Origin: a virus
DNA: 64,000 nt
Direction: 5' to 3' (one strand)
Virus record (IMG/VR): IMGVR_UViG_3300049979_000188
Position 1 is the first letter of the stretch, and every line of letters starts with the position of its first letter. The notes below the pieces were generated by a model. That model searched no databases. It had not been told where the DNA came from and saw only the letters and a program-made list of their open reading frames with translations. The translations under genes and the position numbers were made by a program. Below, piece after piece: positions 22,066-34,675 of the stretch.

Positions 22066-22938
22066 CTAGTCCAGAATAAGCCAATCGGTGGCCAGCCAGT
22101 CTGCCTGGTAGGGTTGCGCCGCTTCCATAGTCCCGTTTTTGAGCACGGCCACCACAAAATTTACCCCCATGGCAATGCCCGAAACCGGTAGGTTATCTAC
22201 GGCAAGCACCTCGCTTACTGTGGGAACGAAGACGGCGCTGTCAGTAAGCAGCCAGTAGCCATCCCAGTGCAGACGTGCAATGCGCTTGCCTCGTTTGAGG
22301 GCCTCGATGGCCGCCCCGAAGGAATATAAGCGCTGGTCAGGCCGCCAGTTAATACTCTCCCGGCGCTCTAAGTCAGCGGGTTCTGCAGCTGGCGCTGGTT
22401 GGCGTTCCGGAGCAAAAGGCAAGTCAAAGGCCGCATCACTGCCGTAGGAGGTTCCGTCGTCGTACCAGCGGCGCGTGCGGTAGGCATTCGCGCGCCACAC
22501 GTCCCCGATAATACCGGCCCAGCTTCCGTCCGGGTACACGGCGTAGCTTAACTCATGGGCCTTGAGCTTATGCCCGCCCTTGGTGCGCTCAACTTTGCCC
22601 AGGTCGTGTTTGAGGCGACTCTTACGGTAGACCTGGTACTCGGCCTCCCCGCCCTTGATAAAGTACTTCCCAAAGTCCCCTTCCGAGAAGAAATGACTGC
22701 TGGCCCCGGACCCATCCGGGTTACGTCGCACCACCGAATAGGCAATGCGTCCGTCACCCTGGGGGGTCACGTAAGCTTCGCACGCATCGCCTACGAAGAA
22801 CCTGTTCCAATCGTTAGAGGCAACTTCGTCACACTCGCCCATGAAATGGCTGGGATGGGGTTCGCGCACGCACATGCAGTTGAGGAGTACGCTCTGGGTT
22901 GGCACATCTTGGGTGTGCTTGAGGTCTGAGTTTTCCAC
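22066..22938 (-). CDS. multidomain protein with a C-terminal DUF2829/Tad2-like domain
   Basis: SFGAAIEALKRGKRIARLHW ... PYQADWLATDW. Confidence 0.75.
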   Translation of the reverse strand: MENSDLKHTQDVPTQSVLLNCMCVREPHPSHFMGECDEVASNDWNRFFVGDACEAYVTPQGDGRIAYSVVRRNPDGSGASSHFFSEGDFGKYFIKGGEAEYQVYRKSRLKHDLGKVERTKGGHKLKAHELSYAVYPDGSWAGIIGDVWRANAYRTRRWYDDGTSYGSDAAFDLPFAPERQPAPAAEPADLERRESINWRPDQRLYSFGAAIEALKRGKRIARLHWDGYWLLTDSAVFVPTVSEVLAVDNLPVSGIAMGVNFVVAVLKNGTMEAAQPYQADWLATDWLILD

Positions 22939-23296: not shown

Positions 23297-23328
23297 AAAA
23301 CCTCAACCAAAAAATTGGTTGAGGTTTT
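23297..23328 (-). terminator. intrinsic terminator
   Basis: AAAACCTCAACCAA/TTGGTTGAGGTTTT stem with U-tract, just 3' of the tRNA-like RNA. Confidence 0.75.
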
Positions 23329-23338
23329 AACAAAGAAG

Positions 23339-23451
23339 GCCGGGTGCCGGGAGTCGAACCCGGACGTCAGGTTGCAACCCTGACCGGAGCGCGTTTGCGA
23401 GGTAAGCCTCCGGCGTCTGCATCACTGCGCACCAATTTCGCCACACCCGGC
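23339..23451 (-). ncRNA. tRNA-core RNA: Leu/Ser-type scaffold, hairpin inserted in D-loop, 18-nt anticodon loop
   Basis: GCCGGGTG/CACCCGGC acceptor, TTGG D-loop, CCGGAG/CTCCGG stem, long variable arm GTCAGG/CCTGAC, CCGGG-TTCGACT-CCCGG. Confidence 0.75.
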
Positions 23452-23458
23452 TTTTTCG

Positions 23459-23770
23459 TTACCCTGGCGCAGGCGCTTCGGGTAGGGGTGTGATAATAAC
23501 TTGTCCCGTTAGCAGGATACGCCTGCCGCTATCCAGGTCAAAAAACGTATAGTGGACATTATCGGGCGCGAGGGTGACTTCGCCCTGGGCGAGGTAGGTC
23601 CGAAAGACCAGGCCATTCTGGATGAGCTCGACGCACGTACGCTTGCGTGCATTACGTGCCCGCTCCCGGGCATCGAGCTGTATTACCACAAAGGCCGAGA
23701 CGAGCAGCGCGCCCATTGTGGTAGCGAAATAGATGGCGTCGTAAAAGAGCGAATCAGGTTGGTAGCCCAT
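23459..23770 (-). CDS. small membrane-anchored protein
   Basis: N-terminal hydrophobic helix. Confidence 0.6.
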   Translation of the reverse strand: MGYQPDSLFYDAIYFATTMGALLVSAFVVIQLDARERARNARKRTCVELIQNGLVFRTYLAQGEVTLAPDNVHYTFFDLDSGRRILLTGQVIITPLPEAPAPG

Positions 23771-23771
23771 T

Positions 23772-24431
23772 TTAACTGGGTGAAAACTGGTAGTCCGGAT
23801 GGAAGTTCAACCGAATCAGGGTCCGCTCCACGGGACCCGCGATAGGCAGACTCTCGTGAATGCCGAGTGAATTGAGAAAGTAGACTTCGTTGGCCGGCAT
23901 CACGTGCGTGGCCAGGTGGTCGGTGCTGATTGCCGCGCAGCAGCCCCCGGGTCCGAACTCGCCGTCGTATTCCCCCTCGTAAACCTGGCAGCCGGCCACA
24001 TTGGAGACCAGCAGCATACCACCAGGCTCCAGTCCCGGCTTCCAGTAACCACCGGTCTGCGCCCAGTTGCGCGGCATACGATGCTGGCCGGCCGGTGCCG
24101 GGCGATGTGAGCCACCGGGAGTGGGACAGGGTGTGGCGATATGCGAGCCCTGGGCCACGTGCATGCCCGGGGTTTCGTACCAGTTGTAATCCACATGCTT
24201 GCCCCCGCGCCGGTGGGTCGTGTTAATGATACGCTTCTCGTCGATGGTGACGTAGCCCACAGCGTTGCGGGCACTGACCTGCGTGAGCATCTGCTCCAGT
24301 ACGGGTACGTAATCAGCAAAGCCTTCGGGCAGCTGCAGCGTGTCGAGCCCCACGCGGTGCATGTAGAGACTACGCTGCGCAAAGGCTGGCATGGCGCGGA
24401 TTTGACCGACGGGCTGGGCGACACTAAGCAT
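23772..24431 (-). CDS. phage 2OG-Fe(II)-oxygenase-like (DSBH) protein
   Basis: THRRGGKHVD (HxD), GGML.VSN, IHESLP....RTLIRL. Confidence 0.6.
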   Translation of the reverse strand: MLSVAQPVGQIRAMPAFAQRSLYMHRVGLDTLQLPEGFADYVPVLEQMLTQVSARNAVGYVTIDEKRIINTTHRRGGKHVDYNWYETPGMHVAQGSHIATPCPTPGGSHRPAPAGQHRMPRNWAQTGGYWKPGLEPGGMLLVSNVAGCQVYEGEYDGEFGPGGCCAAISTDHLATHVMPANEVYFLNSLGIHESLPIAGPVERTLIRLNFHPDYQFSPS

Positions 24432-24455
24432 ACAAAAAAGGGCTGATTTTAGCTA

Positions 24456-24484
24456 GTTTACGGGTATACGCAGTACTGCGTTAC
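24456..24484 (-). promoter_or_regulatory. phage ECF-like promoter motif copy
   Basis: GTAACG-N16-CGTAAAC. Confidence 0.75.
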
Positions 24485-24492
24485 GCCCTGAG

Positions 24493-25020
24493 TTAGTAAG
24501 CCCAGTTATGGGTAACAATAGCAGGGATACCTAACTTAGCAAGTAACAAATCCAGGGTTTCCTTGTCGAGCCGGCCGTACTGAGTCAGCTCTTCTCCGTC
24601 CACAATAAGGTCCGTGCCCGTGGTATAACAGCACCCATCGCCGCAAGTGTGGTCCCATTCACGAATGGTAATACGATGAGGCTTTTTCGAATCCACAAGG
24701 GGATACGGCTTTTGGGTTTGAATTTTACCGGGGCCGAGCCAATAAATAATTGGCAGACTACCCGTCTCGTAATCGAGAGTGTCTGCTATGGTTAGCAGTA
24801 GACTCTCATCAGCAAAAGCAGCCTCGAATTGGGCAACGGTGTCGTAGACGAAGTTGTCCCAACTTTGAGTGCCCACATACAGCTGCTCAGCTGTATCAAC
24901 TGCTTCCACAATATGGGTTTTGGTCGACTGGTCGTAGGTATACTTGAATTGCAGCTTGGGGTGCTCAACTAGTTGAGCATCAAGTAAGGCAATGAGGTAC
25001 TTCTCAGCTTCCTCGTTCAT
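24493..25020 (-). CDS. hypothetical protein
   Basis: 175-aa ORF. Confidence 0.65.
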   Translation of the reverse strand: MNEEAEKYLIALLDAQLVEHPKLQFKYTYDQSTKTHIVEAVDTAEQLYVGTQSWDNFVYDTVAQFEAAFADESLLLTIADTLDYETGSLPIIYWLGPGKIQTQKPYPLVDSKKPHRITIREWDHTCGDGCCYTTGTDLIVDGEELTQYGRLDKETLDLLLAKLGIPAIVTHNWAY

Positions 25021-25037
25021 AGTAGGTAAAAAGTATG

Positions 25038-25110
25038 TCGGGGTACTCGGGCTCGAACCGAGGACCTCTCCCTCATGAGGGGAGCGCTCTACCAGCTGAG
25101 CTAAGGAGGC
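25038..25110 (-). pseudogene. chimeric tRNA-Met(CAT)-like gene with an unpairable acceptor stem
   Basis: perfect D, anticodon (CT CAT GA) and T arms, but 5' GCCTCCT versus 3' TACCCCG gives 0/7 pairs. Confidence 0.7.
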
Positions 25111-25116
25111 AAAATT

Positions 25117-25335
25117 TTACTTACCGTAGATGGTTGTCTTGCGGCCGTCTACCCAGTACGTGGTGCTTACGCTGTCCTGCTGGGTACTGTCCGCTTCAAT
25201 CGGGTAGTTGAGGCCTTGCTGATAAAGGGTTACGGCTCGACGCTTGCCAAAACGGGTCCCACTACCCAATGAGAAAAAATAAAGCACCAGCAGGGTTAGA
25301 ATCAGTGCTAACAATAGGGTACGTTTGTTTTCCAT
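25117..25335 (-). CDS. small membrane-anchored protein
   Basis: MENKRTLLLALILTLLVLYFF. Confidence 0.55.
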   Translation of the reverse strand: MENKRTLLLALILTLLVLYFFSLGSGTRFGKRRAVTLYQQGLNYPIEADSTQQDSVSTTYWVDGRKTTIYGK

Positions 25336-25513
25336 TGAGAAAGAATAAATAACTTGAAAGTCAGCGTAGCGGTCTTCCATGGTTGAACCTGGGAAGAGAT
25401 TCTGCCGCCTGGCTCTACCGCTGAGCATCCCGTGCAACCGTACAACTGGTCAGGCAGGCGAGGGGTAACCTCCCGCCGACGTACGACTTGGCGGGGTTTT
25501 CCATTCAAGTTTT

Positions 25514-25846
25514 CTACTTAATCCACTCCGCCAGACCTGCTTCCATCGCTTCAGCGATGGTGTGCGTGGGATTAGCCTGCAAATCCTTCATAGCCCAAAG
25601 CAATACTTCTGCCTCCAGCTTAAAGGCGCGGGCCTCCGTAAGGCCATTGTCAATGGCGGCAAGCTCTTGCTCAACCGGCACCTGATTCGAGGAGGGGTTT
25701 GCCGCACAAAAAGCTTCGTGGGTGAGGTTGCGCCCCGTCTCAGGGTCGAAGCCGGTGCCCCAAAAATCAGGTGCGCCGGGCAGCGCTGAGTTAAAAAGTG
25801 TTTTGGAATCACCTGAGCTCAGGTGGTCGTTGCGGTAAGTTTCCAT
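25514..25846 (-). CDS. hypothetical protein
   Basis: 110-aa ORF between RNA genes. Confidence 0.6.
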   Translation of the reverse strand: METYRNDHLSSGDSKTLFNSALPGAPDFWGTGFDPETGRNLTHEAFCAANPSSNQVPVEQELAAIDNGLTEARAFKLEAEVLLWAMKDLQANPTHTIAEAMEAGLAEWIK

Positions 25847-25860
25847 GATGAAAAATAAGG

Positions 25861-25962
25861 TGGCGCAGACAAGTGGACTCGAACCACCGACCTCCTACCG
25901 TACCGTTGAAGAATTGAACTCCGGGGCCAATGCAGGCGCTCTACCGACTGAGCTACGTCTAC
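25861..25962 (-). ncRNA. tRNA-core RNA with a 33-nt anticodon loop and encoded CCA
   Basis: GTAGACG/TGTCTGC, GCTC/GAGC D-stem, CCTGC/GTAGG, GGTGG-TTCGAGT-CCACT, G-CCA. Confidence 0.8.
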
Positions 25963-26166
25963 TTACGTGCGGCTTACGTTTACCGCGAGAACACTTCCAC
26001 AGTTCCCCGACCTATCCGTTGAGGCGTTTGCATCCCTTGCCCAAGCAACCCAGGCCTTGGCTACTTGCACTTCGTGTGTATTGCACGCCCTCACCTAGCA
26101 CATTTTTCGGAAAAACAAGCGGCACGTGACCTCCGCCCCCCTCAGTTAGAACTGGATAAACTGATG

Positions 26167-26239
26167 CACACGAGATAGGGTTCGAACCTATGACCTGCGG
26201 TTTTGGAGACCGCCGCTCTACCAGCTGAGCTACCCGTGT
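26167..26239 (-). tRNA. trnW: tRNA-Trp(CCA)
   Basis: full cloverleaf, loop CT CCA AA, G73. Confidence 0.93.
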
Positions 26240-26694
26240 AAATGTACTGGTGGACTTATCAAGGGTTCGTCCATGAGCCAGCCAGTACCCCGTAAAACTT
26301 GTCATCCTCCACGGTGAGGGTATTTCTTCGCACTAGTCAGGCTGTTCTTCCCCGTTTAGAAGGTCAATCGCGCATCACTGCGGGACGGCCTTCCGTTGGC
26401 CTCGAACCAACTGAATTTACTGGCGCCTTACTCAGGCTACCTACCTGTTCTCTGCCTTAGGTTACCCCAACCCTTGTCGTGAGTTGCCCGGGTGGGTGAC
26501 CCGTACCCGTGCTCGAAGGAGTCACAAACATACGGGCGCCAGCCAAGACGCAACTCAGTGTCCAAGTGCTAAGATAGCTTACCAGCCCTCTCGGCGGTAG
26601 CGTAAAGGTAGTCGGGCGTGAACTGCGAGGCGCAAGGCCAGCAAATCCAGTTCACGTAACTACCTGGTAGGGTTTGCCTACCGTAAAGTTGTAC

Positions 26695-26952
26695 TTACCT
26701 ATCAGCGAGACTATGCTTGGTAAGGGCTAGAAAGTTACCTAGCTCCTCGAAAAACTCCTCGCCGGCCAAGGCAAGTTGAGCCGTAGCATCCCCCATGGTA
26801 GCTCCTCGGGCATGAAGCAAGCGCACGGGAGTCTCTCCCACCAGTGTCAGAATAGCCACAAAGGGCTGCTCAACTGAGTCGTTCATGTTATAGCAAGTAA
26901 CACTGAAGGGGGAGACAGCAGGGGCCGTCAACGTAGGAAGCGGGAGTGTCAT
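26695..26952 (-). CDS. small hypothetical protein (weak HicB-like)
   Basis: ARGATMGDATAQL resembles the HicB 'GxTxEEA' helix. Confidence 0.5.
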   Translation of the reverse strand: MTLPLPTLTAPAVSPFSVTCYNMNDSVEQPFVAILTLVGETPVRLLHARGATMGDATAQLALAGEEFFEELGNFLALTKHSLADR

Positions 26953-26968
26953 AAAGGAAAAGTAAGTG

Positions 26969-27054
26969 TACGGATGAAGGGAATCGAACCCTCAAGCCCG
27001 GTCAAGGGCCAACACAGTTTAAGTATGTCGTGTATCCCATTCCACCACACCCGC
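26969..27054 (-). tRNA. trnL: tRNA-Leu(TAA)
   Basis: type II cloverleaf, loop CT TAA AC, A73. Confidence 0.9.
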
Positions 27055-27058
27055 ATAG

Positions 27059-27217
27059 AGACAGTAGCTGGAGTCGAACCAGCGGCAAGTACCCAGGGGA
27101 CAGGTTTTATTTACTCCTCTTGTTGCCCGGCTTGCGGCCCGGCTCAAAGGTCCCCCTAAGCTGGATACCAGGTGCATCCTGACCCTCCCGCGGACTAGTC
27201 TGGGGTGTCATACTGCC
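27059..27217 (-). ncRNA. tRNA-like RNA: acceptor stem and T-arm with a ~110-nt branched body
   Basis: GGCAGTA/TACTGTC, GCTGG-TTCGACT-CCAGC, internal GTATCC/GGGTAC and AGGGGGAC/GTCCCCT helices. Confidence 0.7.
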
Positions 27218-27237
27218 AGGTTAAGCGCGTGCCCGCG

Positions 27238-27582
27238 CTAGTTCTTTGTCGCGACGAGTTGCTCGGCTAGCAGCTCCGCAACTTGTCGCAATGTATTGAG
27301 TGGCACAAAATTGTAGTCAAGCACGTTTCGCAATGCCCGGGCCAGTTTAACACGGTCCCACTCATCGAGTATTTCTTGCTCTGTAAGGTGAAGGCGAAAA
27401 TGACCGTGCTCCGTTTTCATTGTGGTTAGCAAGTAGCGCTCGCCCGGCTGTTCTACCAGGGTAAAGTACTTAGTGCCCACCGTTGCAACGGTAAACTCGT
27501 CGATTTCCCGCTCCTTAACTGGCCCGCGACTACGAAGTGCCTCGCGGTAGAGGGTCTGACCCTTTACAAGTTTTGCTGCCAT
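27238..27582 (-). CDS. hypothetical phage protein
   Basis: 114-aa ORF with a TVATVGTKYF beta motif. Confidence 0.65.
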   Translation of the reverse strand: MAAKLVKGQTLYREALRSRGPVKEREIDEFTVATVGTKYFTLVEQPGERYLLTTMKTEHGHFRLHLTEQEILDEWDRVKLARALRNVLDYNFVPLNTLRQVAELLAEQLVATKN

Positions 27583-27722
27583 CGCGACTGATTAATAAAG
27601 GTAATAGTAGACGGGGGCGTCCCCCCTGCAAAAAGCGCATTTACAATTTATGCTATGGCCCGGACCCTGGGTTGTACCAGCGGTGTTATACTCCGCATCA
27701 TTCTTTCCGCAAATCTACTAAG

Positions 27723-27800
27723 CGGTCCCTACCGGGGTCGAACCGGTCTGATAACTCCCGTGACAGGGGAGTAGCCACGCCTACCGCAGCCCCAGGGACC
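27723..27800 (-). tRNA. trnD: tRNA-Asp(GTC), atypical D-arm
   Basis: GGTCCCT/AGGGACC, CTCCC-CT GTC AC-GGGAG, G73. Confidence 0.85.
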
Positions 27801-28053
27801 AGAATTGCCCGGAATTTGACCAGTAACCTCCCACACCGGGCTGGTGGGTTATCGCCTGGCACCCACATGAAGGGCTAGTCAAGGTCTTCCCCTTGCGTCG
27901 TCCCGTTATACCTCAATTGGCGAGGGTAGTGCCTGCATCTAAGAGCGCCATGGCGGAGTGTCTACGGGAACACTCACTTCAAGAGGGTGACCAGTTATAC
28001 GATACTAGTCGAAAACGCCGTGCCTCCAGGCTTACTGCTTAAACAGAAGGATT

Positions 28054-28281
28054 CTATTCCGTAAAGACCAGTGTGTCATGTTCATTGACCACCGTGGGCG
28101 GGTATTCGCCAGGAGCACACACGTAGGGCAGCTCATTCCAGGGGGTCTGGCCATCACCCACTTTGAGTTGCCGCGTCGTTTCGTCGTAGGCCGGCTCGCG
28201 TAGGCCCAGAATCGGGTTTACTTGCTGCCAGTTTTCGCTGCTGTCGCCACGTAGGCGAATGCGCGTGGGGGTGTCATCCAT
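28054..28281 (-). CDS. stand-alone Mtd_N-like (tail-fibre N-terminal) domain protein
   Basis: IRLRGDSSENW..VNPIL...EPAYDETT..LKVGDG.TPWN.LPY. Confidence 0.8.
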   Translation of the reverse strand: MDDTPTRIRLRGDSSENWQQVNPILGLREPAYDETTRQLKVGDGQTPWNELPYVCAPGEYPPTVVNEHDTLVFTE

Positions 28282-28416
28282 GGTCGTAGAAGTTAAGTGG
28301 TTGAAGGAGGGAAAACTAGTACGGTATCACCCACTACTAGAATTACAGGGTCATCGTTGACCGTCGTTTTAGGTTTATCAGTCATGGGCAAACTTACAGT
28401 ACCTACTTAAAAGGTG

Positions 28417-28527
28417 CCCAAGCCGAGTACAGACTAGCGCGTAATGGCTGGCCTTGCGAGCCTTGCCGACGAACCAGTCACTGGAATCGAACCGTAAAGT
28501 ACTTCACTGACTTTCGGCCGGCTTGGG
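28417..28527 (-). ncRNA. small structured RNA with an internal T-loop (permuted-tRNA/Y-RNA-like candidate)
   Basis: terminal 9-bp CCCAAGCCG/CGGCTTGGG stem enclosing GG-TTCGATT-CC; abuts the CCA of tRNA-Gly. Confidence 0.4.
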
Positions 28528-28529
28528 TA

Positions 28530-28605
28530 TGGAGCGAGAGAACGGGTTCGAACCGTCGACCTGCTGCTTGGAAGGCAGCCGCTCTACCAACTGAGCTACT
28601 CTCGC
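28530..28605 (-). tRNA. trnG: tRNA-Gly(TCC)
   Basis: full cloverleaf, CT TCC AA, U73, encoded CCA. Confidence 0.95.
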
Positions 28606-28850
28606 AAAGTGGACTGGACTTATTAGCTCCAGCCCCTCCGACTTGCGCAGTGTTGTTACGACCCCTTGACCCGGGCTACACGGTCAAGCCGTAACCAAGT
28701 GGGCTAGCACCACTTCACTGGGAGTCCGCATCGTCACCAGCACATACGTCCGGGAGAGGCTAGGCGGCGCACCGATTAGAAGAGGACCGATTCGACGGTC
28801 TCCCTGGGCCCAGGGACCACTGAGAAGAGCTACTTTACGCCGCGCTTATA

Positions 28851-28874
28851 CCATTGTCTGGTACCAGACAATGG
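28851..28874. repeat. perfect 24-bp palindrome
   Basis: CCATTGTCTGGT|ACCAGACAATGG. Confidence 0.9.
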
Positions 28875-28923
28875 AGCTACGTTGACTCTTGTTCAGTGTG
28901 CTGGTCTATCCCAGCTGCTCTTT

Positions 28924-28997
28924 TGGTCACAGAGATGGACTCGAACCACCGACCACCCTCCTTGCGGGGGTACTCTACCACCTGAGCTACCTGCAAC
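28924..28997 (-). ncRNA. tRNA-core RNA with a GNRA tetraloop in place of the anticodon loop
   Basis: normal D and T arms; anticodon arm CCCCC-GCAA-GGAGGG; ends in ACCA. Confidence 0.7.
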
Positions 28998-29145
28998 AAA
29001 CAAGGTTCTGTTAATCCAGTACCCACAACCGCTTCAAACGAGGCTCCCCGCTTACCTGGGAACCGGATGGGTAAGCATCCTGAGTTACGTTTTCTACTCA
29101 TTTACCGTAGGGTATTATGCTTGCGCAGCGGCTACCACGGTAAGT

Positions 29146-29231
29146 TAGGACGTAGGGGAATCGCACCCCTGCTTGGTTCAGCCTGGGCGCCTGCCCGGGG
29201 ATGGGCGCCGTCAAAGGCTTCTCTTACTCCT
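29146..29231 (-). ncRNA. tRNA-like RNA resembling an isolated tmRNA tRNA-like domain
   Basis: no D-stem, ...CTTTGAC then GGCGCC/GGCGCC helix, AGGGG-TGCGATT-CCCCT; weak acceptor stem. Confidence 0.4.
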
Positions 29232-29365
29232 GGGATTTGGAGCGTGCTCTCTACTACACCAACGTCTTTTTATGGTGATAACTTGGTGTTGCTTACATAC
29301 CTTACCGGTCTGAATTCGAACCAGTTAAGTAATTTTGCCGACCTTTACGGGACAAACCACGTTAC

Positions 29366-29610
29366 CACCTGAGCCAAGGGAAGGACTCGAACCTCCACAG
29401 CTGCTGAGAATCCTCTTAAGCAAGACCCCGTCGGGTTATTCACTTGCAGCTTATGTTGAATTTACGGTTTGCCATACCGAACCCTGACTTGTTCTGGAAT
29501 TTGGCCGCGTATTCTGTTCTTTGCGACGGGTCTTAGTTCACGTATATTCCAGTTACCCAGCTGTCGAATCAAGGCGGCGTGCATCCCGCACACCTGATGT
29601 TCCCCGACCT
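29366..29610 (-). ncRNA. tmRNA-like structured RNA candidate
   Basis: GATTCGAC then ACAGCTG/CAGCTGT helix, AAGACCCGTCG/CGACGGGGTCTT helix, GGAGG-TTCGAGT-CCTTC T-arm; acceptor 5' strand unclear. Confidence 0.3.
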
Positions 29611-29880
29611 TGTCCTGACACATCTTCGGACAAACAGAGACTCCAGCTCATAAGGGTCGGCCTGCCAGCTCAGGTATGCCCCAGGCCTTCGCATGCAAAC
29701 CAAACCCTTACCTCAGTACCCGACAGCTTGATTTACATCAGGGGCTGCCGGGAATAGGCGTTGAAAAAGTAACCGGTGGGTTGCAAATTAACCGATTTTC
29801 CTAGTCCCCCCACCTACTACCGTGCAACTAGTAGTAGGAATCTCGCGGTATCAGAAGATGCTGCCATCACTTTTTCATCG

Positions 29881-29953
<73 letters not shown>

Positions 29954-30384
29954 TTGTGTAAGTTCTACTACTTTTACGCAGCCTCAAAAGTTCACCAGAA
30001 CTAGTAAATCTTTAAGGCTGCGTAGGCATAGTGGGTGCTGCTGAGGACTTTCACCTTCTTTTCCTTTAGCTACCAGGTGGGGCGTACCCTTTACCAGGCT
30101 CCTCCCCTCGATTTCCCGTCTCGAAGGGCCGGCAGCACAATGCATGTGCGTCGACTGACATTAGCACTGCGTAGGAACGGCTAGTAACCGTACGCGCAGT
30201 CAGTTGAAGTGTCCACCGTTACCGGCGACTCACAAAAAGTTTGAGGGCGTACGTGCGGTACGCAACCACGCGGGATTTTTACCCGCCAAGGCGACTGACC
30301 CTGAGCCACTACAGCTCAATTGGTTGTGCTCTCTTCAAGCCACTATTACCTAATCGCCCCGGTGTTCGTTCCACTGCCTCAAGT

Positions 30385-30520
30385 CAATTCGGGATGGCTT
30401 TGAACCATCGCCCTACCAGGGATAAGCTGGTAGTACCCGTTTTCAGCTTGAAGTATCACCTTCAGACTGGGGGTGTCGCAGGCCTTGAGCCCGCCGCTCT
30501 GACCACTGAGCTACCGAATG
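30385..30520 (-). ncRNA. tRNA-core RNA with an intact CAA (Leu) anticodon arm and a ~60-nt multi-hairpin variable region
   Basis: ATTCGG/CCGAAT, GCTC/GAGC, GCGGG-CTCAAGG-CCTGC, CTACCAG/CTGGTAG, GATGG-TTCAAAG-CCATC. Confidence 0.7.
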
Positions 30521-30599
30521 ATTTTTTGAAAGAGCTTGTCTTTCATCCTTTTGCCAACAAGTCAAAGACCTTTGCGACTTCAACCTGCTGCCGAAGTAC

Positions 30600-31235
30600 C
30601 TAGTTTACGCTATTTGGGACCGGCCCGTTACCACTTTTGGTAGAAAAAGTGCGCTCGAAGTTGTTTTCGTGCGTACTAGCGGGCGGAATCAGCCCGAATC
30701 TAGCTTCCAGTGGGGGGTGCGCCAAAAGACGGTCCTCGTAGAGTGACACGGGCACCCCATGCTGCGTGATGACCTTGTAAAGAAAGTTACCGCGATGAAA
30801 TTCTCGGTCATCGACTGTGGCACTCACGTAAGTCTCGTCCGCAATGCGGGCAATCACGTACTGGTTAAGTCCGTAGAGAGGACCCGGGAGGTCTTCATTC
30901 TCCTTACTTTTGAGTGGCTCAGGCTCAGCTATCTGATAAGAGCGGCGCCGGGTAACGCGCTGGGTCGGCACTTGGATGAGTTGCAACCCATCCTGGGTGA
31001 TGAGGTCATAATGCCAGCCACTGGCATTAAGCCCGCTCAGAAAGACGGCATCTTTGACCATGCCGTATACATATTGTGCATTCGGACTGTCAAGGGAACC
31101 TAACCGAATAATGACAAAAGCGCCCTTACCCAAGGGTGCGACGCTTGCGTCTAAATCAGTTACAAGGACAGGGTCACCCGGCCCATTCGGGTGCCAGGGA
31201 TTGCGGGTATCGTCGAGCGTTGCTTTTTCAAACAT
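30600..31235 (-). CDS. hypothetical protein with repeated SH3-like beta modules
   Basis: two 'G..VIARI...V.G.V.D..F...YK/YD.IT..G' segments. Confidence 0.7.
   Translation of the reverse strand: MFEKATLDDTRNPWHPNGPGDPVLVTDLDASVAPLGKGAFVIIRLGSLDSPNAQYVYGMVKDAVFLSGLNASGWHYDLITQDGLQLIQVPTQRVTRRRSYQIAEPEPLKSKENEDLPGPLYGLNQYVIARIADETYVSATVDDREFHRGNFLYKVITQHGVPVSLYEDRLLAHPPLEARFGLIPPASTHENNFERTFSTKSGNGPVPNSVN
30603..30631 (-). promoter_or_regulatory. phage ECF-like promoter motif copy directly upstream of ncRNAs
   Basis: GTAACG-N16-CGTAAAC. Confidence 0.75.
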
Positions 31236-31253
31236 GAGACAAAATTGAATCGG

Positions 31254-31442
31254 TTAAGCAGGCAATAAGTTAAGCTCACGTGCGAGCGCATCCTGCAGCA
31301 GGCGTCCAAGACGCAAACGAGCTGGCTCATCGAGGTTGTTAGCCTCGGCCGAGAAGCGAAGCTCGACCAGGGGGCCCTCGTCGTGGAGGTCAACGATACT
31401 TACGCTGCCATTGACGTGCAACTGAGTGGTGATTTCAAGCAT
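31254..31442 (-). CDS. small hypothetical protein
   Basis: 62-aa ORF. Confidence 0.5.
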   Translation of the reverse strand: MLEITTQLHVNGSVSIVDLHDEGPLVELRFSAEANNLDEPARLRLGRLLQDALARELNLLPA

Positions 31443-31471
31443 AAGGGGTTAGGGCTGGTTGTAAAAAAAAG

Positions 31472-31586
31472 TGGTACGGCGGTAGGACTCGAACCTACAA
31501 CCCTCCAGGGTCGGGCCTGATGCGCATCTCGGTTATCCATCTGAAGGGCCCAGTCAAGGGTGGTTGCCGATTTCACGACACCGTAC
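31472..31586 (-). ncRNA. tRNA-core RNA with an elongated anticodon helix
   Basis: GTACGGTG/CGCCGTAC, TCGG D-loop, CCCTT/GAGGG then GGGCC/GGCCC then GATG/CATC, GTAGG-TTCGAGT-CCTAC. Confidence 0.75.
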
Positions 31587-31647
31587 TTTTCCACCCGGTC
31601 CATGTGTCGCCGGGGTACCATAGAAGCCCACTACGAGCTTCACTAGT

Positions 31648-31828
31648 CGAGGATGTCAGGAGTTGAACCTGAATGGACGAGCCCTGGGCAACTAGGGCAA
31701 TGTGTACACCAACTACCGTACCCTGCCGCAGGAGTCATTGTCCGGAAGCTCTTTTTACGTCCCCACCCCGTGTACAAAGCGGAGGCGCTACTTCGAACTT
31801 CTGTGTCTACCAATTCCACCACATCCCT
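31648..31828 (-). ncRNA. tRNA-core RNA (Leu-like D-arm) with a ~125-nt multi-helix insert
   Basis: GGGATG/CATCCT, GTGGAATTGGTAGACAC D-arm, GAAGTTC/GAGCTTC, TGTACAC/GTGTACA, TCAGG-TTCAACT-CCTGA. Confidence 0.75.
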
Positions 31829-31847
31829 AGAAGAAAATACCTACTAA

Positions 31848-32243
31848 TCACTTACTTACTACTGTCGCCAGCGCCGGCGCTGGCTGAGTAGCCTCCGCCT
31901 GCAGTAACCTGGTCATCCGGCAGTAGTTGGTTACAATGCGATAAAAACTAGCCAGATGATGCAGCGTGTGCACCTCAGCTCGCGCTAAACCTTCGCCCGT
32001 ATGCCCAGGGAACAACGAGTGCTGGTGGCCATCAAGCTGCAGCAAGTCGTGCAGTGACACCCAGAACAAGTCACTCAGCATGGTAAGCTCACTCAGACTC
32101 GGCCGCTGCGTACCCGCCAGGTACGCTTCCGCCTTAGCCAAGTCAACTTGCAAATAAGTGGCTAATTGCTCGTTCGTGACGAGAAAGCGTTGCTGCAAGG
32201 CCCGTAAATTAACGCTGATATGCTCGTTAAGCTGCGTATCCAT
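31848..32243 (-). CDS. XRE-family HTH protein
   Basis: NLRAL..RF..TNEQLA.YL.V...AEAY..G...PSL.EL..LSDLF; start MDTQLN. Confidence 0.75.
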   Translation of the reverse strand: MDTQLNEHISVNLRALQQRFLVTNEQLATYLQVDLAKAEAYLAGTQRPSLSELTMLSDLFWVSLHDLLQLDGHQHSLFPGHTGEGLARAEVHTLHHLASFYRIVTNYCRMTRLLQAEATQPAPALATVVSK

Positions 32244-32262
32244 AGTAAATACTATCGTTGAG

Positions 32263-32401
32263 CTGACAAGATAGGGCTCGAACCTATGACCTGCGTACTT
32301 GGCAGAAAAACTGACTGTATTTTGACACCCTAACGGGCGCTTACTCACGTAAGTACAGTTCTGCTGCGGTTCTGCTGCTCTACCACCTGAGCTACTTGTC
32401 A
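32263..32401 (-). ncRNA. tRNA-core RNA with a branched anticodon domain
   Basis: TGACAAG/CTTGTCA, GCTC/GAGC, GCAGAA/TTCTGC, CTGTA/TACAG, TTAC-GTGA-GTAA, ATAGG-TTCGAGC-CCTAT. Confidence 0.75.
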
Positions 32402-32731
32402 AAAGATGACCGCGGGTAAGACCTACTAGAACCCCACGGTCGACGCATCCTATTGTCCAAAGTGCCCCCTCTTGTGGGTAAACACTTAGGGATGCTTTGC
32501 CCTACACCCTATGGTGGCCGGTACCCTATCTGAAGGGGTCCACCCTAAAAGTGCATGGCACATCCTCCTTGTCGACTGACGGTTCCCGCTACCCAAGGAG
32601 GTCGGCGCGGGAACTACACCAGCAGCTCACCTGCTGGAACCCGGTAGATAAGCGCGGGTCGTAATTATCACTTTCCAGTATTTCAAAGAGCACGTTTACC
32701 CGCGTCAAGGGGTACGTAAGAGTGAATACGA

Positions 32732-32898
32732 AATCCACGGTAGGAGTTGAACCTACAAAGCTAGTCGCGCTACTGCCAGCGACTAGCGGCCAGGCCATTG
32801 CCTGGGGCTCTCGCCCCTTGAGCAGTAGAGTCGGTGTTCACCCGAACCCCATCCTTTGGCTAGCTACCCCGCGCGTTTACCCATTTCGCCACGTGGCT
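32732..32898 (-). ncRNA. tRNA-core RNA (Leu-like D-arm) with an expanded anticodon arm and three variable hairpins
   Basis: AGCCACG/CGTGGAT (6/7), GCG-AAATGGGTAAA-CGC, GGGGC-GAGA-GCCCC, GCTAGTCGC/GCGACTAGC, GTAGG-TTCAACT-CCTAC. Confidence 0.75.
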
Positions 32899-32951
32899 TC
32901 GTATTCAGTAACAAGCCCTTCGTTTAAGGACCTTTAACTAAGAACTGCCGA

Positions 32952-32980
32952 GTATACGTATAAACTACGTTACGCGTTAC
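32952..32980 (-). promoter_or_regulatory. phage ECF-like promoter motif copy directly upstream of an ncRNA
   Basis: GTAACG-N16-CGTATAC. Confidence 0.75.
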
Positions 32981-33462
32981 ACCGTAGTTCGCTTTTTTTG
33001 CGTATCCTCGTAAAGTTCAAGGCTTTTGCTTAGCAAGGCATCCAGGCCTTCCACGACGTGGAGTTGGGGAAGCTTCACTCGGTCGGCGTGGGCGAGCACA
33101 ATCGCACGGGCGTTGTTGGAATCCTTCCCACCGCCGGGGTTTGCCGCCAGTAGCTCCGCACTCACACGCTTCTCGATGAAGACAACCACCGTCCGACGCT
33201 CATACGATTTGATGGCCCCAATAACGGCAAAGCCAATTTCGGCCAGCGAGGCCGTGCCCGTCGTTTCGCCCGTAATGGCAAAGACCACAATGCCGTCACT
33301 GGCCAGGTGCTCGGCTTCGAGCAGGGCGTCGTCAGGCGACCAGTCAGCCTTATTAGGGTTAAAAAAGTCAATACCCAGCTCCTGATAGCGCTGCGTAAAA
33401 GCATCCCGCCACTGAGAGTTACCGCAAGTCCCGAATAAACCAATTGAAGCTTGAGCCGCCAT
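32977..33462 (-). CDS. nucleoside 2-deoxyribosyltransferase-like protein
   Basis: LFGTCG.S.WR...I.FFNP...DW...E..HL....F.IT.ET.G..SL.EIG; start MAAQAS. Confidence 0.75.
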   Translation of the reverse strand: MAAQASIGLFGTCGNSQWRDAFTQRYQELGIDFFNPNKADWSPDDALLEAEHLASDGIVVFAITGETTGTASLAEIGFAVIGAIKSYERRTVVVFIEKRVSAELLAANPGGGKDSNNARAIVLAHADRVKLPQLHVVEGLDALLSKSLELYEDTQKKRTTV

Positions 33463-33523
33463 GTAAAAAGAAAGGTAGAATGAAAAAAGGATGCGGAAAA
33501 GAGTTGAATTTTCAGCAAATAAG

Positions 33524-33597
33524 TGGCTACTACTGGATTCCAACCAGTAACCTACACCTTCGGAGGGTGTCGCTCTATGCAGTTGAGCTAAGTAACC
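33524..33597 (-). tRNA. trnR: tRNA-Arg(CCG) with swapped 19:56 pair
   Basis: full cloverleaf, CT CCG AA; D-loop ACTGCATA and T-loop TTGGAAT. Confidence 0.88.
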
Positions 33598-34566: not shown

Positions 34567-34600
34567 TAGCCCGTAGGGGAATCGAACCCCTACGTTAGCT
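34567..34600 (-). ncRNA. tRNA minihelix (acceptor stem plus T-arm only)
   Basis: AGCT(AA)CGT-AGGGG-TTCGATT-CCCCT-ACGGGCT-A: 12 bp with a 2-nt bulge, immediately 3' of tRNA-Glu. Confidence 0.5.
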
Positions 34601-34601
34601 G

Positions 34602-34675
34602 TACTGCGCACGGGGCTCGAACCCGTACTCCCCGCCGTGAAAGGGCGATGTGTTAGCCAGTTACACCAGCGCAGC
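34602..34675 (-). tRNA. trnE: tRNA-Glu(TTC)
   Basis: full cloverleaf, CT TTC AC. Confidence 0.93.

Follow-up and report, generated by a model that had tools for sequence, protein, structure and literature searches.

A jumbo phage tRNA cluster rich in tRNA-derived genes with inserts in place of the decoding arm

Introduction

Stable RNAs that resemble transfer RNAs (tRNAs) have been known from the phages T4 and T5 for about fifty years and are still without a function. Here, these RNAs are compared with a tRNA island in IMG/VR virus record IMGVR_UViG_3300049979_000188, of which a stretch of 64 kilobases (kb), referred to as the window, was analysed. The source is an uncultured jumbo phage with a genome of ~203 kb, most of which lies beyond the window. 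The island carries ordinary tRNA genes side by side with elements in which the acceptor, D and T parts of a tRNA enclose an insert where the decoding arm should be. Unless stated otherwise, coordinates are those of the window, and the tRNAs, tRNA-like elements, open reading frames (ORFs), promoter motifs and terminator placed below lie on its minus strand.

The closest described counterparts are found in T5. In its GenBank record (AY543070), RNA1 (144 nucleotides, nt) and RNA2 (125 nt) are annotated as 'tRNA-like stable RNA with unknown functions' and RNA3 as 'putative tRNA-like RNA'; five other stable RNAs are recorded too, in a tRNA region made up of tRNAs, small ORFs and many promoters. T5 RNA1 (L008 6502-6645) has a Leu-type frame with an insert replacing the anticodon arm and a variable-arm hairpin, and is called 'Leu, intron 40' by ARAGORN in intron mode, a reading like that given to the window frames; since it is annotated as a stable RNA at 144 nt, insert included, it appears to be unspliced. 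Full-length copies with 74-100% identity occur in 487 Demerecviridae records, where they are mostly unannotated or lie under a 'hypothetical protein' coding sequence. In an alignment of 12 sequences, 99.3% of cells pair and 11 of the 36 pairs are changed on both sides, including pairs of the acceptor, the insert-closing stem and the insert hairpin. The covariation score of 0.308, compared with at most 0.087 for slid partners, was reached by none of 500 shuffles. This conservation and covariation show that joining a tRNA core to a folded, non-decoding insert is a real, selected RNA design in Demerecviridae.

The T4 tRNA cluster ends with two small stable RNAs, species 1 (rnaC, 139 nt) and species 2 (rnaD, 119 nt). 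Like the window elements, rnaC combines a T arm with a closing terminal helix; it differs from them in having no recognisable D arm, and the fold of rnaD is not tRNA-shaped. Neither T4 RNA has sequence similarity to the window. The layout also has a man-made parallel in the tRNA scaffolds reportedly engineered by Ponchon and Dardel in 2007, in which a cargo replaces the anticodon arm for recombinant RNA production. There, the tRNA core allows the cell to process and stabilise an unrelated cargo mounted on the anticodon stem, a layout matched exactly by one of the window elements (E25861); the parallel speaks to feasibility only. Further non-decoding mimics of the acceptor and T arm are the YrlA-type Y RNAs and the tRNA-like domain of transfer-messenger RNA (tmRNA), although the YrlA ends form a protein-binding stem and not an acceptor.

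Oversized tRNA genes with 'enigmatic introns' have been described in Lak megaphages, and Devoto et al. suggest that such genes may be common in large phages (bioRxiv 10.1101/356790). The likeness to the present locus lies in huge phages whose oversized tRNA genes contain short inserts fitting no intron class; the Lak inserts differ in having been read as introns from presence/absence alignments and in being identical across cohorts (bioRxiv 10.1101/356790), whereas removal of the insert from the window elements restores no normal loop and a single genome is available here.

Insert-bearing tRNA frames in the island

The island, of ~12 kb (23.3-34.7 kb), is a phage tRNA cluster on the minus strand with phage-specific promoters, and contains seven ordinary tRNAs together with at least nine tRNA-derived genes. 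With default settings, ARAGORN reports no tmRNA in the window and eight tRNAs, which lie on the minus strand between 26.1 and 34.7 kb. Run in intron mode (-i) on both strands of the 64 kb, it calls seven minus-strand frames (23338-23450, 25861-25962, 29371-29488, 30383-30521, 31473-31585, 32262-32401 and 32730-32899) and no further insert-bearing frame elsewhere on either strand, while 20 dinucleotide shuffles of the 14-kb island yielded a single intron-mode call in total (0.05 per shuffle). Two more frames, 31646-31829 and 27058-27183, are called only at a looser threshold (-ps85).

A scan for a 5-base-pair (bp) stem with a TTCRA loop returned 20 minus-strand hairpins, of which the island holds 19, and a single plus-strand hairpin. 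The Rfam tRNA model scores 25864-25962 (47.1 bits), 30385-30520 (35.7 bits) and 28926-28996 (32.1 bits) above its gathering score, and the elements at 23339, 29371, 31473, 31648, 32262, 32730 and 27059 below it; E23339 and E31473 also match the Rfam tRNA-Sec model weakly (26.5 and 19.7 bits). The Rfam alignments of the three elements above the gathering score contain insertions of 30 to 70 nt. The ARAGORN calls compared with shuffles, the T-arm scan and these Rfam scores together show that the tRNA frames are real.

In eight frames the tRNA core is intact in both pairing and elbow nucleotides: the D-loop GG, the TTCRA loop and the G53-C61 pair closing the T stem are all present, and core loss is confined to the element at 25040-25110 and, in part, to E27059, which has no D arm. 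The original prediction, made from the sequence alone, had listed eight elements with an acceptor stem, a D stem with D-loop GG and a T stem with a TTCRA loop, and the 5-bp T stems with TTCRA loops are indeed found at 23358, 25883, 28945, 30404, 31493, 31667, 32282 and 32751; reading of the sequence likewise recovers the D stem with its GG loop and the closing acceptor helix in all eight. Its description of a ninth element, at 27059, as lacking a canonical D arm agrees with the folding, in which an acceptor and T arm enclose three hairpins. To that list the analysis adds the frame at 29371-29488, a tRNA-Met-like body at 25040-25110, a minihelix at 34567-34600 and an extra T arm at 26406. The middle of the frames is where they depart from tRNAs. 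Only E30385, itself 139 nt long, keeps a 5-bp anticodon stem topped by a 7-nt loop in which U33 and R37 are present, and the other frames have anticodon-region loops of 13-64 nt or branched domains instead of a canonical 7-nt loop.

Architecture of the individual elements

E32730 (32730..32899) is the first gene after its promoter and consists of a class II D arm, an acceptor with one G-A mismatch, a 116-nt multi-hairpin insert and a T arm. It is followed by E32262 (32262..32401), called in intron mode, in which a perfect 7-bp acceptor and D and T arms close to those of tRNA-Trp surround an 89-nt central region. The likely paralogue is the canonical tRNA-Trp(CCA) of the island (26166..26239), to which the 3' part of E32262 is identical at 28 of 30 positions and the D arm at 17 of 19. 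E31648 (31646..31829) has a Leu-type frame with a 130-nt two-domain insert and a D arm nearly identical to that of the canonical island tRNA-Leu(TAA) (26968..27054), its likely paralogue.

E31473 (31473..31586) shows an 8-bp acceptor, a class II D arm, a 5-bp stem closing a 33-nt loop, a variable-arm hairpin and a T arm followed by a T8 run. In E30385 (30383..30521), the anticodon loop CTCAAGG is intact on its 5-bp stem, and the insert of ~68 nt, folding into two hairpins, sits in the variable region. E29371 (29371..29488), absent from the earlier list, combines a 7-bp acceptor, a 4-bp D stem, a branched insert of 66 nt and a T arm. E28925 (28925..28997; 32.1 bits with Rfam) is of normal length and differs in its anticodon arm, which is a short stem with a C-A mismatch and a GCAA cap, 9 nt where the model has 11; the acceptor contains a G3-U70 pair, and ARAGORN calls 'Leu caa' with a G at position 33.

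E27059 (27058..27214) abuts tRNA-Leu(TAA), and its acceptor GGCAGTA/TACTGTC and T arm stand around the three hairpins. E25861 (25861..25962) possesses canonical acceptor, D and T arms and an encoded CCA, with a 5-bp anticodon stem carrying a 33-nt loop; this loop contains a T-loop-like hairpin, and it is here that the Rfam alignment places a 30-nt insertion. In E23339 (23338..23451), called in intron mode, the acceptor measures 8 bp and the D stem, of class II type, 3 bp; the central region before the T arm, 63 nt long, forms a hairpin with a 13-18-nt loop and then a 6-bp hairpin with the loop GTTGCAA.

Two further features lie in the island. E25046 (25040..25110) has D, anticodon and T arms like those of tRNA-Met(CAT) with unpaired acceptor strands, scores 42.7 bits with Rfam over model positions 8-63 only and lies 6 and 19 nt from the flanking ORFs; from its sequence it looks like a remnant or pseudogene between two ORFs. 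Directly after tRNA-Glu and before a terminator stands an acceptor/T-arm minihelix (34567..34600), an interrupted helix of 12 bp with a TTCGATT loop.

Structure of inserts and core

Folding energies of nine inserts were expressed as z-scores against dinucleotide shuffles, with equal-sized coding segments as the control. A z-score of -2 or lower was obtained for five of the nine, namely E29371 (-2.4 and -2.0 in two runs), E30385 (-2.5), E31648 (-2.4), E32262 (-2.0 to -2.3) and E32730 (-2.1), compared with 5% of the coding controls. Under a binomial model, the probability of this result is 3e-5, rising to 4e-3 if the background rate is set cautiously. None of the nine inserts folds better on the antisense strand, and for eight of them the sense strand is strictly ahead; for E25861 the sense and antisense values are -12.2 and -5.7 kcal/mol. 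In E31648 (-51.1 compared with -35.2 kcal/mol), the 11 G-U pairs and a fold 16 kcal/mol better than that of the complement point to an RNA helix and away from a DNA palindrome. The claim of the original prediction that each element carries a different, well-paired module thus holds for the uniqueness of the inserts, while 'well paired' is statistically backed in five of nine only.

The fit between insert and core was assessed in eight elements by ranking the pair probability of the acceptor, D and T stems with the native insert against 100 shuffled inserts. The native insert favours the core pairs in E31648, E32730, E30385, E25861 and E29371, with ranks of 0, 1, 4, 7 and 9 out of 100, respectively, and a combined p of 0.002. 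Comparison with the likely paralogues points in the same direction: relative to tRNA-Trp, three acceptor pairs of E32262 are changed on both sides with pairing kept, and three double changes in the T stem of E31648 relative to tRNA-Leu(TAA) likewise preserve pairing.

What the inserts are not

Simple introns in the anticodon loop were considered and rejected. In the five frames with a closing stem, a search for a single deletion that would give an N-U-NNN-R-N loop found only one weak solution, in E29371, and none in E25861, E31473, E32262 and E23339; because no single deletion restores a canonical loop, these are not simple intron-bearing tRNAs. No Rfam match to group I introns, small ribozymes, Y RNA, tmRNA, GOLLD/ROOL or recently described tRNA mimics such as skipping-rope was found between 22.5 and 35.5 kb at E <= 10. 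The smallest group I introns known are about 200 nt long, and the inserts, at 33-130 nt, are shorter. An average of ~206 nt has been reported for the introns of Jug phage.

Other candidates fared no better. The inserts share no similarity with one another or with the rest of the window, as a mobile repeat would, and no convincing frame was opened on the transcribed strand by another genetic code. A decoy of the anticodon stem-loop was also dismissed, as a hairpin with a 7-nt loop of the U33/R37 type occurs in only two inserts. As for a Y RNA, beside the missing Rfam match no TROVE (Ro60) domain was detected among the window ORFs scanned, most of the genome being outside the window; nor was a splicing endonuclease detected among those ORFs.

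Promoters and transcription units

Nearly all window genes are encoded on the minus strand and follow copies of one motif, GTAAC-N17-CGTAWAC. There are 20 copies in the window, all on the minus strand and none on the plus strand, where ~0.6 per strand would be expected; the sites include 60068, 55232, 51390, 41723, 34994, 32980, 30631, 24484, 22060 and 6209. In sequence, GTAAC-N17-CGTAWAC(T) resembles a promoter of the extracytoplasmic function (ECF) sigma type, and this one-sided excess suggests that the phage brings or redirects a sigma factor.

All frames fall inside promoter-to-terminator units. The original prediction had placed copies of the motif directly upstream of two elements (at 32952 and 30603), and the motif is real in both places: one copy (GTAAC-N17-CGTATAC, 32946..32980) lies 46 nt upstream of E32730 and another (GTAAC-N17-CGTAAAC, 30597..30631) 75 nt upstream of E30385. 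A third copy (24450..24484) heads a unit of a 219-amino-acid (aa) ORF, a 103-aa ORF and E23339, closed by an intrinsic terminator with a 14-bp stem and a T run (23297..23328). Within this unit E23339 stands 7 nt from the preceding ORF stop and 10 nt before the terminator. Spacing is similarly tight at other elements, with 14 nt from E25861 and 31 nt from E31473 to the next ORF; the ORF that separates E32262 from E31648 stands 18 nt from each of them.

Comparison with T5 RNAs and other phage tRNA clusters

The original prediction knew of no named family to which such elements could belong. This was mistaken, given that T5 RNA1, RNA2 and RNA3 and the T4 species 1 RNA are annotated precedents. 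Like the window elements, the three T5 RNAs lie within a phage tRNA cluster, on the strand of the tRNAs and among tRNAs, small ORFs and promoters, and in T5 RNA1 and RNA2, as in the window elements, an acceptor and T arm of tRNA type, with or without a D arm, flank a middle unlike that of a tRNA, for a total length of ~100-190 nt. An internal T-loop-like hairpin is found in T5 RNA2 and, likewise, in E25861. They differ in number, T5 having three such RNAs and the island nine or more, and in what is known of them, the conservation and covariation of T5 RNA1 being proven while the window elements come from one genome. Apart from the generic Leu frame, the T5 RNAs and the window elements are homologous neither in sequence nor by model. 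Membership of the T5 RNA1 family itself was rejected: its covariance model scores E31648 at 20.5, E32730 at 11.4 and E29371 at 11.9 bits, compared with 18-27.6 bits for ordinary tRNA-Leu, and E31648 matches it through the Leu frame only. Since these scores are no better than those of tRNA-Leu, the window elements share the design and not the ancestry of the insert.

Other clusters, among them those of two reference jumbo phages, contain fewer such frames. None of the 23 tRNAs in the cluster of Caulobacter phage CcrBL9 is accompanied by an insert-bearing frame (0/23), and the cluster of Agrobacterium phage Atu_ph07 has 17 tRNAs and two weak insert-bearing frames (2/19). A metagenomic array unrelated to the window (L007; 40% guanine-cytosine content, with a phage YunG-like gene), met through an unusual tRNA-Glu anchor, has 16 tRNAs and two such frames. 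One of these (3315-3451 of L007, minus strand) is a tRNA-Leu(TAA) with an intact anticodon arm and 53 nt inserted between the D and anticodon arms, 4 nt from the next tRNA. The density in the present island, with at least nine among ~19 units, is the highest of the clusters compared and is unusual.

The same array provides a separate observation on tRNA bodies. Across D arm, anticodon stem and T arm, its tRNA at 6271-6345 matches the window tRNA-Glu(TTC) (34601-34675) at 56 of 59 bases, and its different acceptor stem and GTC anticodon indicate that the same body has been re-used for another amino acid.

Searches for relatives of the phage itself returned little. A megablast of 10 kb of the island against isolate phages matched the tRNA-Trp piece only, protein-anchored scans of viral contigs found no relative, and exact-pattern scans with the insert sequences in viral, metagenome and genome collections found nothing. 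In a search of 5.8 billion proteins the best protein relatives were 46% and 61% identical, and no tRNA-like elements were present on those of their contigs that could be inspected.

Interpretation and alternative readings

What these elements retain, namely an acceptor helix, a T arm and the elbow formed with the D arm, is what tRNA-processing enzymes recognise, and the decoding arm would have been lost to a unique insert of 33-130 nt. RNase P and the enzymes that process tRNA 3' ends could then excise each element from a polycistronic transcript, and its tRNA core would stabilise the RNA, making the elements counterparts of T5 RNA1, T5 RNA2 and the T4 species 1 RNA. That the elements are transcribed, processed and stable we infer by analogy with T5 and T4. 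On this footing, we give roughly even chances to the proposal that most of the insert-bearing frames specify, as a class, unspliced, non-decoding tRNA-like stable RNAs; the same interpretation is firmer for E25861, E29371, E30385, E31648 and E32730, which we regard as somewhat probable members. It draws on analogy and modest statistics. The use of the tRNA fold as a processing and stabilising chassis, as put forward in the original prediction, is upheld in part and has the best support of the readings compared: the non-intron character of the inserts, their strand-specific folding, the intact core, the promoter units and the T5 analogue speak for it, and inserts without structural excess and decay remnants speak against it. 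The functions that the prediction attached to the cargo (decoy, T-box ligand or protein scaffold) found no evidence in the analysis. What the inserts might do is a matter of guesses: they could divert host defences directed at tRNA, as decoys or sponges, or offer an RNA-binding protein a handle.

A broader version of this proposal appears unlikely, namely that the T5-type RNA has been expanded here into a repertoire of at least nine tRNA-cored RNAs, each with a different folded domain, some of them chargeable by synthetases that ignore the anticodon, and serving as defence decoys or sponges or as partners of the ProQ-like protein encoded in their midst. Hints of chargeability are the class II bodies of Leu/Ser type, the G3-U70 pair of E28925 and, in E23339 and E31473, an acceptor extended at its top by one more G-C pair.

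Several observations weigh against a functional reading of the elements. In the collections searched, no relative was close enough for conservation or covariation of the inserts to be compared. Four of the nine inserts lack excess structure (z = 0 for E23339 and E31473, ~0 for E27059), and three of the eight elements ranked (E23339, E31473 and E32262) give no core-compatibility signal. The structural signals are altogether modest and, deriving from energy models and presumed paralogues, do not amount to proof. The acceptor has a mismatch or bulge in E30385, E31648 and E32730, and three G-U pairs in E28925. The central region of E32262 includes an 11-nt tandem duplication, and the helices of E32730 are palindromic, so that its antisense strand folds equally well; both have the look of accidents at the DNA level. 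Finally, the island contains broken remnants, which show that tRNA genes decay there: the tRNA-Met-like body at 25040-25110, the extra T arm at 26406 and, near 25430, the relic of a D arm. Given the remnants, the duplication, the acceptor mismatches and the four inserts without structural excess, some members may be dead or dying.

These same points, together with inserts that are unique and have no detectable relatives, are what would be expected if the frames were decaying tRNA genes, that is, birth-and-death pseudogenes with duplications and insertions in the anticodon region, perhaps still transcribed owing to their place in tRNA operons and without function. This explanation, the least improbable of the alternatives though still rather unlikely, has to account for lesions confined to the anticodon and variable region with the elbow determinants intact in eight frames, for structural signals that are strand-specific and changes in acceptor and T stem that are compensatory relative to the likely paralogues, for the kilobases of packaged genome spent on such elements, and for the conservation of the T5 analogue. 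tRNAs punctuate mitochondrial transcripts as cleavage sites, and a comparable role here, with RNase P and 3' cleavage sites splitting the transcripts, only the core mattering and the insert drifting freely, would explain both the conserved core with wholly different middles and the distances of 6-31 nt between frames and ORF ends. A minimal helix or an ordinary tRNA would suffice for this purpose, however, and the strand-specific excess folding of the larger inserts is left unexplained, as are neighbours with no ORF between them (E32730 then E32262; E31648 then E31473); punctuation is quite improbable. Least probable of all do we consider intron-bearing tRNAs, in which a protein endonuclease would remove the insert and a phage RNA ligase join the halves into a working tRNA, as has been proposed for the Lak megaphage genes. 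The acceptance of seven frames by ARAGORN in intron mode and the oversized tRNA genes of Lak megaphages and the L007 array favour them, but four of the five frames with a closing stem yield no canonical loop by single deletion, the 'intron' positions given by ARAGORN vary between frames, and the insert of E30385 lies in the variable region beside an intact anticodon loop. The scanned ORFs, moreover, supplied no endonuclease for such splicing, and T5 RNA1, of the same design, is annotated as stable at full length.

The island and the T5 RNA1 result suggest that non-decoding RNAs built on a tRNA core form a class of phage genes that is widespread and has been overlooked. If such RNAs act against defences that target tRNA, or bring in RNA-binding proteins of the host, phage counter-defence would gain an RNA arm. 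For annotation, the consequence is more immediate, in that such genes escape default tRNA finders or are labelled introns or pseudogenes, T5 RNA1 being itself an annotation gap.

Genomic setting of the island

The window proteins were located on one contig of 202,851 nt, and an identical contig of 35 kb is present in a Logan assembly of run SRR35533023. A further tRNA gene of the island, tRNA-Asp(GTC) (27722-27800), is called by ARAGORN and missed by the Rfam tRNA model even at E <= 10; its D hairpin is 7 bp long and ends in a loop of 5 nt.

An ORF of 114 aa (27238..27582) with a Phage_ProQ_C_like domain (Pfam PF24203, E = 4.4e-9, 37.4 bits with a cut-off of 27) lies inside the RNA island, 23 nt upstream of E27059. 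No tRNA-like elements were found near its 61%-identical relatives, one contig of 1.2 kb having been inspected directly and the other by gene map only. The 219-aa ORF (23772-24431; phrog_8970) heading the unit that ends in E23339 has no Pfam or NCBIfam match and has homologues of 32-35% identity in Erwinia, Serratia and other jumbo phages. Atlas features and structure suggest that it may resemble an oxygenase of the 2-oxoglutarate (2OG)-Fe(II)/PhyH type, which is a lead only; an assignment as an RlaP-type nucleotidyltransferase was rejected, as the Pfam and NCBIfam searches were empty and the Atlas lead is a 2OG-oxygenase-like fold.

The ORF starts read in the island, at 25846, 26952, 31235, 31442 and 32243, have no obvious Shine-Dalgarno sequence upstream, which may be informative about the host. 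About 3.4 kb of the island is without ORF or recognised RNA. In the spacers between tRNAs, 90-nt stretches of the minus strand reach fold z-scores of -5.6 (29954-30043), -5.0 (~26600-26690), -4.0 (28831-28920) and -3.4 (32582-32671). The island is flanked on one side by a protein with a Tad2-like (anti-Thoeris) domain (22066-22938), and a nucleoside 2-deoxyribosyltransferase-like protein (32977-33543) is likewise encoded on an island flank.

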